From assembly GCF_041929145.1 (NCBI RefSeq), contig NZ_JBHFNU010000005.1:20868-84867 (forward strand): DNA of 64,000 nucleotides. Direction: 5' to 3'. The notes under the pieces are model-generated. The model saw nothing but the letters and a program-made list of their open reading frames with translations, did no database searches and was not told the origin of the DNA. Shown piece after piece: positions 19,957-24,430 of the stretch. Within the stretch, counting starts at the first letter, position 1. Each line of letters begins with the position of its first letter. This DNA is from Aerosakkonema sp. BLCC-F183 (GTDB taxonomy: Bacteria > Cyanobacteriota > Cyanobacteriia > Cyanobacteriales > Aerosakkonemataceae). Position numbers and translations under genes: made by a program.

Positions 19957-21705
19957 ATGACAGATATCAAACAAAATATGTTAGAACACGATGTAATTAT
20001 AGTTGGCGGTGGATTGGCTGGGTGTCGCGCTGCTGTAGAGATTGCTCGCATCGATCCCAAACTCAGTGTAGCTGTAGTCGCTAAAACTCACCCGATTCGA
20101 TCGCACTCTGTCGCCGCCCAAGGTGGTATGGCTGCTACCCTAAATAATGTCGATCCAGACGATACCTGGGAAGCCCACGCTTTCGATACGGTCAAAGGTT
20201 CCGACTATCTCGCAGACCAAGATGCGGTGGCAATTCTTACCCGCGAAGCACCAGATGTCATCATCGACTTGGAACATATGGGTGTGCTGTTCTCCCGTTT
20301 GCCAGACGGACGCATCGCCCAACGCGCTTTCGGCGGACATTCCCATCGCCGCACTTGCTACGCCGCCGATAAGACCGGTCACGCGATTCTGCACGAGTTG
20401 GTTAACAATCTCAGGCGTTACGGTGTTCATATTTACGATGAGTGGTACGTAATGCAACTGATTTTAGAAGATGCCCAGGCAAAAGGTGTGCTGATGTATC
20501 GCATCCGCGACGGGCATCTGGAGGTAGTTCGCGCTAAGGCGGTGATGTTTGCTACTGGGGGTTACGGTCGCGTTTTCAATACTACTTCCAATGACTATGC
20601 CTCTACGGGTGACGGTTTGGCAATGTCTGCCCTCGCGGGTGTGCCGTTGGAAGATATGGAATTTGTGCAGTTTCATCCCACAGGACTGTATCCGGTGGGG
20701 GTGCTGATTTCGGAAGCGGTGCGCGGTGAGGGTGCTTATCTTATTAATAGTGAGGGCGATCGCTTTATGGCTAATTACGCCCCCAGCCGGATGGAACTGG
20801 CACCCCGCGATATTACATCAAGAGCGATCGCACGGGAAATCCAAGCGGGACGAGGCATTCATCCTGATGGTTCTGCGGGTGGCCCCTTTGTCTACCTCGA
20901 CTTGCGCCACATGGGTCGCGAAAAAATTATGAGTCGCGTTCCCTTCGCTTGGGAAGAATGTCATCGCCTCCTGGGTATCGACGCCGTGGAAGCACCAATG
21001 CGAGTCAGACCGACAGTTCACTATTCGATGGGCGGTATCCCAGTCAATACAGACGGACAAGTTCGCAGTGGCGCAGATGGTTTAGTGGAAGGATTTTTCG
21101 CGGCGGGAGAAGCTGCTTGCGTTTCCGTTCACGGCGCAAATCGACTGGGTAGCAACTCGCTGCTGGAATGTGTGGTCTATGGCAGAAGGACTGGTGCAGC
21201 TTTAGCACAATACGTGCAAAAACGCAAGCTACCGGACATCAATGAGCAACGCTACATTACAGAAGCACAGAAACAAATTCGATCGCTCCTCGACCAAAAG
21301 GGAGAAATACGAATTGACAAGCTGCGTCAATCTTTGCAAGATTGTATGACTCAATACTGCGGCGTCTTTCGCACGGAGTCAGTTATGCGCGAAGGATTGG
21401 CAGAGTTAGAGAAGTTACAGCAGCAATATCAGAATATCTACTTGGATGACAAAGGTAAACTTTGGAACACTGAGATTGTGGAAGCTTGGGAACTGCGTAG
21501 TTTGACGATCGTCGCTCAATTAATTCTCACATCTGCCCTCAATCGACAAGAAAGTCGCGGCGCTCATTACCGGGAAGATTATGCCGAGCGCGATGACGAG
21601 AATTTCCTCAAGCACACACTAGCATACTATTCCCCTGCTGGCATCGACCTTCAATATAAACCTGTCACAATTACCATGTTTGAGCCAAAAGAACGGAAAT
21701 ATTGA
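19957..21705 (+). CDS. sdhA: Succinate dehydrogenase/fumarate reductase flavoprotein subunit
   Basis: FAD-binding [10 protein letters not shown], covalent-FAD His region [40 protein letters not shown]. Confidence 0.9.
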
Positions 21706-21789: not shown

Positions 21790-21981
21790 TCACTGAAAGT
21801 TATGATTATTTTCTTTTTCTAAATCTAAGATAACTTTGGCGACATCCTCAGCAATTTCTATAGCTTCCTGTACTGTTTTTCCTTCCGCAACCAAACCCTG
21901 TAAATCATCGCTGGTAGCGACAAAATATGCTTGCCCATCTTCAATGAACTTTTCAACCTTGAGTCTAATTAGTGTTTGCAT
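21790..21981 (-). CDS. HicB-like (UPF0150) antitoxin-family protein; no hicA partner seen
   Basis: 63 aa; YFVATSDDLQGLVAEGKTVQEAIEIAEDVAKVIL matches the HicB/UPF0150 pattern. Confidence 0.55.
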   Translation of the reverse strand: MQTLIRLKVEKFIEDGQAYFVATSDDLQGLVAEGKTVQEAIEIAEDVAKVILDLEKENNHNFQ

Positions 21982-22110: not shown

Positions 22111-23157
22111 TCATAACTCATCCTCAATTTCCATATCCGCCGCTTCTAACTCAGCTTCCAACTGTTCCACAGTCGGCAAACTCCCTTGTAACCGCTCCGG
22201 TAAAGCCTCTCTTAATTGATAAGTAGAAACCCCGATCGGCTTATTCATATCCCGCAAAGCATATTCGACTATTTTTTGCTTTTTATTCTTACATAAGATT
22301 ATCCCGATAGTCGGCATATCATCCCGATGTTTCAGTAAATCATCCACTGCCGAAACGTAAAAACTCATCTTCCCTGAAAACTCTGGTTTAAACGCTTCTA
22401 TCTTCAAATCTATTACCACGAAACAACGCAAACGTAAGTGATAAAACAATAAATCGATATAAAAATCCTCCCCTTCAACCTCCAGATGATACTGACTGCC
22501 CACAAAAGCAAACCCCACGCCCAATTCCAGCAAAAAATCGCGGATGCGTTCGATTAAAGCCTTCTCTAATTCTCGTTCTTGCGCTGCTTTCCCTAAACTG
22601 ATAAAATCAAAGTTATAAGGGTCTTTCAATAACTGTTGAGCCAGTTCGGATTGGGGATTCGGGAGAGTACGAGAAAAGTTAGTATCAGCTTTTCCTTGTC
22701 GCCGATATAGCCCACTTTCTATTTGATGGACTAATACATTTCGACTCCATCCTTGTTCGATCGTTTGACGAATATACCACTCTCTCTCAACGGAATCTTT
22801 CACAGTATCCAAAATGCGGACATTATGCCCCCAAGGAATTTGTGCAACAACCTGTTGCACAAATTCAAAATCTCGGTAAGTTTCGGCAAAACTCCTCATA
22901 TACTTGAGATTGCGAGATGAGAAACCTTTCATTTCAGGAAAAGCTTTTTGCAAGTCATTCGCCAAACGATCGATAACTTTAGCGCCCCATCCTTGTTGCT
23001 GCTGTCGATTTAAAATATCTTGTCCAATTTGCCAATAAAGTAACACTAATTCACGGTTAATAGAAAGTGCTGCCCGTACTTGTGCATTGCGGATGCGCTC
23101 TTTCAGTTCCCGCAGAAAATCATTATAATCTTCTGGAATTGATAAACTATTCGCCAT
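22111..23157 (-). CDS. YhcG/DUF1016-family PD-(D/E)XK nuclease-like protein
   Basis: N-terminal region (LKERIRNAQVRAALSINRELVLLYWQIGQDIL…) and a C-terminal nuclease-like core typical of DUF1016 proteins. Confidence 0.6.
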   Translation of the reverse strand: MANSLSIPEDYNDFLRELKERIRNAQVRAALSINRELVLLYWQIGQDILNRQQQQGWGAKVIDRLANDLQKAFPEMKGFSSRNLKYMRSFAETYRDFEFVQQVVAQIPWGHNVRILDTVKDSVEREWYIRQTIEQGWSRNVLVHQIESGLYRRQGKADTNFSRTLPNPQSELAQQLLKDPYNFDFISLGKAAQERELEKALIERIRDFLLELGVGFAFVGSQYHLEVEGEDFYIDLLFYHLRLRCFVVIDLKIEAFKPEFSGKMSFYVSAVDDLLKHRDDMPTIGIILCKNKKQKIVEYALRDMNKPIGVSTYQLREALPERLQGSLPTVEQLEAELEAADMEIEDEL

Positions 23158-23389
23158 AGCCAGATCGATCGCATTGATTACCGCTCGCCCATTATCCCCC
23201 GATCCGCTCCATCACTGCATAGCTTCTTGGCATTTTTTCACAACCGCGTCAGGCGATCGCACTCATTCCGCAGCAGTCAGAGAAAAGGGTAGGGAGTGCG
23301 ATCGCTTCCCAAATTTCTCTAAAAATGAATAGATAATGATAAAATACCCCCTTGTCCTCTCCCAGAAGATAGATGTACAATTATTTATG

Positions 23390-23560
23390 TAAAGAAGGGG
23401 AGTAGCTGCTAGCCAACCATTAAGCTAGCCCATCTGAATCAACATACTGGCGATGAGCCTGGTTCAGATGACAAGTTTGTGAAGCTCTGACCGCTGTAGA
23501 GGTTGGGCTAAAGCATTTCAACACTTGCAAGCGAGACCTTCACTAAGTTCACATTTGAAG
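23390..23560 (+). ncRNA. Candidate yybP-ykoY (Mn2+) riboswitch in the 5' leader of the GDT1/UPF0016 transporter gene
   Basis: AAGGGGAGUAGC motif at 23393-23406 and CAUACUGGCGAUGA at 23443-23456 resemble conserved yybP-ykoY loop sequences as I recall them; internal stem GCTAGC…GCTAGC; two downstream hairpins (TTGAAGAG…CTCTTCAA at ~23565-23590 and GTGAGCTTGGTGAA…TTCATCAAGCTCAC at ~23601-23640) could be the expression platform. UPF0016 genes are a known yybP-ykoY-regulated family. Not verified against a covariance model. Confidence 0.35.
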
Positions 23561-23667
23561 AGTTTTTACGATCTCTTCAATCAAAAAGATGTGAGCTTGG
23601 TGAAGTGTTTTGGCATTCATCAAGCTCACTCAGGAAGAAGAGAAACACACCAGAGGAGTTTGAGAAA

Positions 23668-24285
23668 ATGCTGACAGCTTTTACCGCCGGTTTATTGCTG
23701 ATTACAGTTTCGGAATTAGGGGATAAAACGTTTTTTATCGCTGCAATATTGGCAATGCGTCATTCGCGACGGCTGGTATTTGCGGGCGCGATCGCAGCTT
23801 TAGCAGCAATGACGATATTGTCTGTTTTAGTCGGACAAACTGTGTCTCTTTTACCGAAACAGTACGTTCAATTCGCGGAAATAGCTTTGTTTGTCGGTTT
23901 TGGGCTAAAGTTATTGTACGAAGCCAGTAAAATGTCAGGCAAAGCCGAATGCGACGAAGCAGAAGAAGCATTAGCGGCAGTTAAAGAAGCAGAAGCGAAA
24001 ATGCCTCGCCGCCAAAGCAAATTAGCGGTTTTAGTCAAAGCTTTTACAATGACTTTTGTGGCGGAATGGGGCGATCGCACTCAATTTGCCACCATCACCC
24101 TAGCCGCCTCCTACAATGCGGTCGGAGTAACCACAGGTGCTATTTTAGGTCATGCCATTTGTGCGGCGATCGCAGTCATGGGCGGACGCTTCATCGCCCA
24201 GCGAATTTCCGAACGCACTATGACTGCTGTGGGAGGTTTGTTATTTTTGATCTTCGCCGCCGTAGCTTGGATAGAAGCTGTTTAG
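23668..24285 (+). CDS. GDT1/UPF0016-family (Mnx/TMEM165-like) putative Mn2+/Ca2+ cation transporter
   Basis: Two signature motifs, ELGDKTFFIAAILA and EWGDRTQFATITLAA, each within a 3-TM repeat. The ORF caller starts at 23605, but the MLTAF start at 23668 is more plausible. Confidence 0.8.
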   Translation: MLTAFTAGLLLITVSELGDKTFFIAAILAMRHSRRLVFAGAIAALAAMTILSVLVGQTVSLLPKQYVQFAEIALFVGFGLKLLYEASKMSGKAECDEAEEALAAVKEAEAKMPRRQSKLAVLVKAFTMTFVAEWGDRTQFATITLAASYNAVGVTTGAILGHAICAAIAVMGGRFIAQRISERTMTAVGGLLFLIFAAVAWIEAV

Positions 24286-24430
24286 GGGCTAGGGCTAGGG
24301 CGTCGGGGCTAGGGCGTCGGGGCTAGGGGAAGAGGGAAGAGGGGAAATATTAATTCTTCCGCTCCCCCACTCCCCCGCTCCCCCACTCCCCCACTCCCCC
24401 ACTCCCCCACTCCCCCACTCCCCACTTTCT
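24284..24430. repeat. Composite STRR-like repeat element, copy C
   Basis: (GGGCTAGGGCGTCGG)2 GGGAAGAGGGAAGAGGGG AAATATTAATTCTTCC (GCTCCCCCACT/CCCCCACT)x8. Confidence 0.8.

Follow-up and report, generated by a model that had tools for sequence, protein, structure and literature searches.

Riboswitches of the yybP-ykoY family typically control genes of manganese export and manganese tolerance, i.e., those for MntP, TerC, P-type ATPases and UPF0016 proteins, and they share a loop L1, whose 5' strand GGGGAGUAGC holds an A-minor adenosine, and a loop L3 with an invariant Mn-coordinating adenosine. Cyanobacteria need much Mn for photosystem II and are poisoned by its excess, and the Mnx/GDT1 exporter is central to this balance. 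We analysed a 64,000-nucleotide stretch of Aerosakkonema sp. BLCC-F183 (contig NZ_JBHFNU010000005.1), hereafter the window, in which a leader precedes a GDT1/UPF0016 transporter gene. We conclude, with a probability of about 0.85, that positions 23394-23667 are an Mn2+-sensing yybP-ykoY riboswitch which turns on this GDT1/Mnx-type Mn exporter at high cytoplasmic Mn2+. The identity of the aptamer as a member of the family is well supported, and from the sequences we infer the mechanism of its expression platform, the binding of Mn2+ and the direction of regulation.

Described members of the family fold into a four-way junction with two legs, P1.1-L1-P1.2-P2 and P3.1-L3-P3.2-P4 (PMC12153347, PMC6754395), and the L3 consensus drawn from 1,063 sequences is ACAUACU (PMC12153347). 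The use of P1.1 as a switch helix and the need for co-transcriptional folding are both documented (PMC6754395, PMC12153347). In E. coli mntP and alx, folding during transcription is required for the Mn-coupled rearrangement, and alx RNA refolded at equilibrium is inactive with or without Mn (PMC12153347). The family of the gene studied here is a documented target, since 328 of 333 bacterial UPF0016 genes (strains) are reported to be under yybP-ykoY control (PMC7380456). For cyanobacteria, Additional file 1 of Sun et al. 2013 enters COG2119 under yybP-ykoY for both Nostoc sp. PCC 7120 and Synechococcus JA-3-3Ab, together with a ykoY entry for Gloeobacter, and contains nothing for Synechocystis 6803 or ten other strains (PMC3766115).

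Every structural feature of the family that can be tested was found in the leader, with the parts in the order P1.1, L1 (GGAGUA/GAGA), P1.2, P2, P3.1, L3, P3.2 and a long P4 (Table 1), and the minimum-free-energy structure of the isolated RNA 23392-23543 is the four-way junction. The original prediction, made from the letters of the window, had named two sequences resembling conserved loops, AAGGGGAGUAGC and CAUACUGGCGAUGA, and an internal GCTAGC...GCTAGC stem. The first is present at 23395-23406, where the L1 motif equals the family consensus and that of E. coli mntP; the second, at 23443-23456, overlaps an L3 with the family-wide consensus ACAUACU, which is identical in E. coli mntP; and the stem is P2. 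The conserved four-way junction on which that prediction depended can be folded, as seen from both the minimum-free-energy structure and the covariation in 80 sequences.

The relatives were gathered by a protein-guided scan, which gave 80 cyanobacterial GDT1 loci (64-84% protein identity) from Nostocales, Oscillatoriales, Coleofasciculaceae, Leptolyngbyaceae and others. In nearly all of them, GGGGAGTAG...AACATAC...GAGACC occurs in fixed order upstream of the GDT1 gene, with GAGACC about 102 nucleotides (nt) from the start codon. A rigid anchor parse (GAAGG GGAGUA GCU, P2, 11 nt-ACAYRCU-GGN-loop-NCC-UGG+8, P4, AGY GAGA CYUUC) fits 78 of 81 leaders. On this parse P1.1, P1.2 and P3.2 are 100% canonical, no P3.1 pair is non-canonical in more than one of 78 leaders and compensatory swaps occur, and the stems of P2 and P4 hold a constant register around variable loops. 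A MAFFT alignment of 51 compact aptamers has the junction 98.6% paired, against 24-43% in slid controls. From these 51 cyanobacterial sequences, with the window excluded, we built a covariance model, R1, of 116 positions and 34 pairs. R1 has a single match in the 64-kb window, at 23392-23543 (107.6 bits, E = 4.9e-30), and matches 79 of the 80 GDT1 loci at the same position upstream of the gene. It also aligns to E. coli mntP end to end (positions 1-116 of 116) and helix for helix, with 45.8 bits and E = 2.1e-11. The resulting 80-sequence alignment has 98.4% of its cells paired, compared with 21-44% when slid; being fitted to R1 it leans toward the structure, and the independent counts from the anchor parse and MAFFT agree with it. 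Double-sided changes occur at 19 of the 34 junction pairs, and none of 500 shuffles reaches any of five measures. Because R1 matches only once in 64 kb and the same arrangement recurs at 79 of 80 loci, the arrangement of the leader is far beyond chance.

The single locus without an R1 match is L064 (Lyngbya sp. CCY1209), whose GDT1 protein is 66% identical. Upstream of position 1501, GCGATCGC (HIP1) sites abound in place of the element, which was perhaps lost there or gave way to other regulation.

Taken helix by helix, P1.1 is 100% canonical in 78-80 sequences, its fourth pair being G-C in 73-75 and A-U in five loci, where GAAGG/CCUUC is swapped for GAAAG/CUUUC. P1.2 is likewise 100% canonical (G-C in 72 sequences, G-U in 8). 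P2 is 98.1% paired across the 80 sequences with double-sided changes at all six pairs, P3.1 is 99.8% paired with 7 of 11 pairs changed on both sides, and P3.2 is 100% paired (C-G 66, U-A 9, U-G 5). The basal stem of P4 keeps its register, is 93.4% paired and has 4 of 6 pairs changed on both sides. P4 itself spans from about 18 to about 100 nt among relatives (including L045, L046, L059, L078 and L080), and aptamer length, at 103-214 nt, varies mostly with it.

GGAGUA of L1 is invariant across the 78 parsed leaders and identical in E. coli mntP, positions 1-3 (ACA) and 6-7 (CU) of L3 are invariant in the same leaders, and GAGAC is invariant in the relatives. One of the L3 adenosines at 23442, 23444 and 23446 should be the counterpart of A41 in L. 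lactis and A48 in X. oryzae. In the window GAGACC lies at 23533-23538 and AGCGAGACC at 23530-23538, and E. coli mntP has GGCGAGACC 3' of P4. These residues bear on the idea that the same fold answers another or a broader signal, such as Ca2+, Cd2+, or Mn2+ coupled to alkaline pH. Both Ca2+ and Mn2+ are substrates of GDT1 proteins, a family described as divalent cation/proton antiporters. A family member in S. pneumoniae also responds to Ca2+ (PMC11672702), and alx couples Mn sensing to pH (PMC12153347). On the other hand, the L3 found here is the mntP-type ACAUACU and not the alx-type UCAUUAC linked to the pH response, and the core residues of L1 and L3 are identical to those of Mn-validated members, thus we consider such a signal quite improbable and Mn2+ the probable ligand.

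The Rfam model of the family, RF00080 (Manganese, yybP-ykoY), has a gathering score of 45 bits in release 15, and at gathering thresholds Rfam found nothing in the whole 64-kb window and nothing in 20 relatives. With permissive settings RF00080 was the only riboswitch family matched in the leader, reaching 22.6 bits on 23391-23478 (E = 2.9e-4, 551-nt search) and 26.4 bits in a 181-nt search (E = 7.2e-6), and it matched the same position in all six relatives tested at 21-31 bits. The alignment covers L1, P2, P3.1, L3 and P3.2 with high posterior probability, after which 84 positions of the model are passed over; within it, GGGGAGUAGC at 23397-23406 is aligned to the identical consensus of the model at posterior probability *. 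The printed release-15 model, 177 positions long, lacks pairs for P1.1 and P1.2; its 3' half consists of a 7-base-pair stem that closes a long loop, in which a G-rich stretch and a terminator-like U-run are found. Long versions of P4 are one reason why generic models score this clade poorly. The scan suggested in the original prediction thus gave no match above threshold, but it singled out the expected family, and the cut-off itself is undiagnostic. The miss does not refute the assignment because the validated mntP leader of E. coli K-12 (L081 2462-2573), scored as a control at 41.6 bits, is below the cut-off as well. Annotation pipelines relying on the gathering score of release 15 would therefore leave members of this clade, and even E. 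coli mntP, unmarked.

Other families matched poorly. Plant and animal microRNA and small nucleolar RNA families (MIR7696, MIR172, MIR395, SNORD81 and others) scored far below their gathering scores, and the MIR matches at 23521-23620 merely match the long hairpin A described below. The NiCo (czcD) riboswitch, another metal sensor with a four-way junction, had no match at E up to 10 in 23200-23750 and 23380-23560; the L1 and L3 loops of the leader are of the Mn type, in contrast to the tight NiCo junction, which lacks L1-L3 docking loops.

The low RF00080 score could also be read as a sign that the leader senses no ligand at all, i.e., that it binds a protein or small RNA or affects stability, resembles yybP-ykoY by coincidence, and leaves Mn control to a transcription factor at the promoter. 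The promoter region is indeed unusually conserved, with ATAGATG before the -10 box in 16 loci, and ManSR is the only Mn regulator described in cyanobacteria and the only one named in the 2024 Mnx paper (PMC11649195). Coincidence is nevertheless scarcely credible given that R1 matches E. coli mntP from end to end with E = 2e-11, that validated members have the very same L1, L3 and GAGACC motifs, and that the downstream gene family is the expected one; moreover, promoter control and a riboswitch are compatible, and E. coli mntP has both.

Downstream of the aptamer, the original prediction had proposed two hairpins that looked mutually exclusive. They are real and correspond to A and B, which belong to a chain of three hairpins ending at the Shine-Dalgarno (SD) sequence. 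The 3' strand of P1.1 is used by the base of A, CCUUC at 23537-23541 serving both; the 3' strand of A is common to B; and the 3' strand of B is common to C, which sequesters the SD, so that B excludes both A and C. In many species the base of A also takes in GAGA of L1. The chain was compared in an alignment of 71 distinct leaders. Hairpin A is 97.3% paired (34-52% in its slid controls), B is 93.2% paired with 14 cells changed on both sides, and C is 96.7% paired with 4 of 8 pairs changed on both sides; slid controls for the three overall are 15-52% paired, and none of 500 shuffles equals B or C. The strand shared by A and B has changes compensated in both partners at once, as A-U-A in 48 sequences and G-C-G in 5, and a second three-way covarying set as U-G-C in 58 and U-A-U in 4.

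The loop of A in the window contains an extra hairpin (UUGAAGAG...CUCUUCAA, 23555-23580) which most relatives do not have; at this point of the alignment, L003 and L005 carry another insertion. Insertions are tolerated in the loop, while the stem is conserved.

The mean free energies of the alternatives are -26.9 kcal/mol for full A, -20.1 for B, -15.7 for A with GAGACCUUC withheld and -14.3 for C, hence A loses about 11 kcal/mol when this segment is withheld. Full A is more stable than B, and B more stable than truncated A, in all 71 leaders. This ordering is exactly what a toggle driven by the locking of P1.1 needs. We therefore propose the following course of events. Without Mn2+, P1.1 would be weak and full hairpin A would form, B could then not form, and C would form and keep translation off; in the window and about half of the relatives, A with its U-rich tract may in addition terminate transcription. 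In the presence of Mn2+, docking of L1 and L3 would lock P1.1 and L1, A would lose its base, and B, being more stable than truncated A, would capture the anti-SD strand, leaving the SD free so that the exporter could be made. The parity of the hairpin chain suggests an Mn-ON switch, as expected for an exporter.

The same aptamer might instead exert purely transcriptional control, with A and the U-rich tract as a terminator prevented by Mn-stabilised P1.1, and B and C without any regulatory role. The base of A is the 3' strand of P1.1, as in the classical model of L. lactis and X. oryzae, UGUUUUGG follows directly after A in the window, and at least 5 U occur in the 8 nt after A in 42 of 71 leaders. 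Against this account, a U-run of at least 4 follows A in only 32 of the 71, the longest run is at most 2 in 21, and the terminator scan made no call on the + strand, the U-rich tract after A included. Since the U-tract is inconsistent across relatives, termination is not the general mechanism, and a pure intrinsic terminator was rejected in that role. B and C are conserved with compensatory and three-way changes, and a stability of B between those of A and truncated A, seen in 71 of 71 leaders, is unneeded by a simple terminator. We thus regard exclusively transcriptional control as unlikely and prefer the relay through A, B and C.

Several observations weigh against a Mn-ON riboswitch acting by this relay. 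In nearest-neighbour energies, each of the 71 leaders favours truncated A together with C over B, and when P1 is forced in a fold of the whole leader the SD stays hidden in 5 of 6 leaders examined; on both grounds a purely thermodynamic switch was discarded. Because truncated A plus C always beats B, the ON state would be set during transcription and not at equilibrium, in agreement with what is published for E. coli mntP and alx, and the relay to translation requires kinetic control. Relatives do not conserve the U-tract after A, and the score of the leader is under the Rfam gathering score. The 80 sequences are fairly close relatives, for which shuffle controls overstate significance, many of the pairs do not vary, covariation in P1.1 is limited to a single pair, and the fold energy of the aptamer is modestly better than that of shuffles (z = -1.96). 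For every cyanobacterial member, we infer both Mn2+ binding and the direction of regulation.

Table 1. Features of the GDT1 leader and its surroundings (window positions)
Feature	Position	Strand	Pairing, sequence or basis
YhcG/DUF1016 nuclease gene	22111-23157	-	borders 23158-23667 on the upstream side
Intergenic region upstream of GDT1 gene	23158-23667		
Predicted promoter-like site	23352-23381	+	TTGTCC-18 nt-TACAAT; consensus scan
Complete aptamer, yybP-ykoY-type four-way junction, ~148 nt	23394-23541	+	R1 match, minimum-free-energy fold, sub-threshold RF00080 matches
P1.1 switch helix, 5' strand	23394-23398	+	GAAGG; pairs with 23537-23541
L1, 5' side	23399-23404	+	GGAGUA, within GGGGAGUAGC motif
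P1.2, 5' strand	23405-23407	+	GCU; pairs with AGC 23530-23532
P2 hairpin	23408-23429	+	GCUAGC, 10-nt loop, GCUAGC; stem 23408-23413 / 23424-23429
P3 arm	23431-23470	+	P3.1 23431-23441 / 23460-23470; P3.2 23449-23451 / 23457-23459
L3 metal-sensing loop	23442-23448	+	ACAUACU
P4 arm	23472-23527	+	basal stem CAAGU/ACUUG, 46-nt variable interior
3' closing strand	23530-23541	+	AGC (P1.2), GAGA (L1 3' side), CCUUC (P1.1)
Hairpin A	23538-23553 / 23590-23605	+	base = P1.1 3' strand
U-rich tract	23606-23613	+	UGUUUUGG, directly 3' of A; possible intrinsic-terminator tail
Hairpin B	23591-23603 / 23617-23629	+	span 23591-23629; excludes both A and C
Hairpin C	23620-23627 / 23656-23663	+	span 23620-23663; sequesters Shine-Dalgarno
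Shine-Dalgarno	23655-23658	+	GGAG, 9 nt 5' of start codon; direct sequence reading
Start codon of GDT1 gene	23668	+	ATG
GDT1/UPF0016 (Mnx/PAM71-type) cation transporter gene, 205 aa	23668-24285	+	Pfam PF01169

The leader ends exactly at 23667, as the original prediction had stated, with the start codon following, and the gene it named is a member of GDT1/UPF0016 by its Pfam score and two motifs. The protein matches PF01169 in two stretches with 161.6 bits (E = 5.6e-48, cut-off 27) and has both E-x-G-D-[KR]-[ST] motifs, ELGDKT at residue 16 and EWGDRT at residue 133; no NCBIfam model matched the transporter. Mn export is its predicted function. All 71 leaders have an SD-like tetramer no more than 25 nt from the start, and the start codon of the GDT1 gene is GTG in 53 of the 71 aligned relatives and ATG in the window.

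The predicted promoter would place the start of transcription about 5-7 nt 5' of P1.1. With a narrow pattern, a TATAAT-like hexamer ending 9-16 nt (mode 12) 5' of GAAGG was found in 52 of 80 relatives, and 48 of these 52 have a TTGAC-like -35. The sequence just 5' of the -10 box, 23367-23381 (AGATAGATGTACAAT), and the equivalent positions in relatives are conserved across genera, and close variants of ATAGATG occur in loci other than the 16 that carry it. This conservation exceeds the needs of a -10 box and might mark an operator for a protein regulator acting alongside the riboswitch; a possible parallel is E. coli mntP, where a protein regulator acts together with the riboswitch.

Two tandem-repeat arrays lie just 3' of the GDT1 stop codon between convergent genes. 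The array at 24286-24346 is G-rich (GGGCTAGGGCGTCG x2.6, then AGGGGAAG x2.9) and that at 24362-24423 is C-rich (CTCCCCCA x7.8, 96% matches); being adjacent, they could pair into a large hairpin, perhaps a bidirectional terminator. On the other side of the leader, a 63-aa open reading frame (21790-21981, - strand) with no NCBIfam match lies between sdhA (19957-21705) and the YhcG-like nuclease gene.

The novelty of the element is low. The class is textbook knowledge, its link to UPF0016 is published, and a cyanobacterial site was catalogued in 2013 (RegPrecise), so the window element adds a true but unremarkable member, below threshold, to a regulon already catalogued, and our findings leave the knowledge of the riboswitch class itself unchanged. 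In the literature searched we found no experimental test of any cyanobacterial member, no analysis of a three-helix platform, and no recognition of the element by the cyanobacterial Mn field. We tentatively suggest, at slightly less than even odds, that the A-B-C relay is a lineage-specific platform combining transcriptional and translational control, and that Mn export is sensed by RNA in filamentous and many other cyanobacteria, a trait absent in unicellular models, e.g., Synechocystis 6803. If this is true, then over much of the phylum the riboswitch would provide the Mnx-type exporter with its missing sensor of cytoplasmic Mn, overlooked so far because the whole clade lies below the current Rfam cut-off. 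The locus and its 79 relatives suggest that the exporter is under a direct Mn-sensing RNA in many cyanobacteria, which provides a candidate cytoplasmic Mn sensor as well as a candidate Mn-inducible expression part for cyanobacterial engineering.

Among the described systems, MneA of Vibrio belongs to the same protein family, UPF0016. Vibrio mneA is likewise a Mn exporter gene downstream of a Mn-sensing riboswitch, but from a proteobacterium (PMC13274385). The COG2119 site of Nostoc sp. PCC 7120 (RegPrecise; Sun et al. 2013) shares with the window element the phylum, the gene family (COG2119 is UPF0016/GDT1) and the RNA family. Compared by its database entry, it is very probably orthologous; in contrast to the present analysis, this entry predates knowledge of the ligand and has no structure, platform analysis or experiment attached. 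Leaders of the Nostoc type were included among the sequences compared here.

The yoaB riboswitch of L. lactis and the yybP-ykoY riboswitch of X. oryzae, transcriptional ON switches with solved structures, share the architecture of the aptamer, and in them a downstream hairpin invades the 3' half of P1.1; in the crystallised aptamer of X. oryzae, GAGACC begins the 3' L1/P1.1 strand (PMC6754395). They differ in having only a canonical terminator, whereas the leader studied here has an inconsistent U-tract and an added module that sequesters the SD. E. coli mntP is similar in its four-way junction, in GGGGAGUAGC of L1, ACAUACU of L3 and GCGAGACC in the 3' strand after P4, and in the UCA/UGG pairs flanking L3; it also controls a Mn exporter and acts on translation. 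Its regulated gene, however, encodes MntP, an exporter of another family, its P4 is short compared with 56 nt here, and its platform is described as a single helix (PMC12153347) as opposed to a chain of three. E. coli alx differs in its three-way junction, its L3 UCAUUAC, its TerC-family target and its response to alkaline pH, and A, B and C have no sequence homology to its helices. In the inactive state of alx, helices P5 and P6 are present; in the active state they give way to an alternative helix, P5/P6, assembled from parts of both, and the ribosome-binding site is released. One of the helices is at the same time an intrinsic terminator, and the RNA has to fold co-transcriptionally (PMC12153347). 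P5 and P6 against P5/P6 thus follow the same logic as A and C against B in the cyanobacterial leader.

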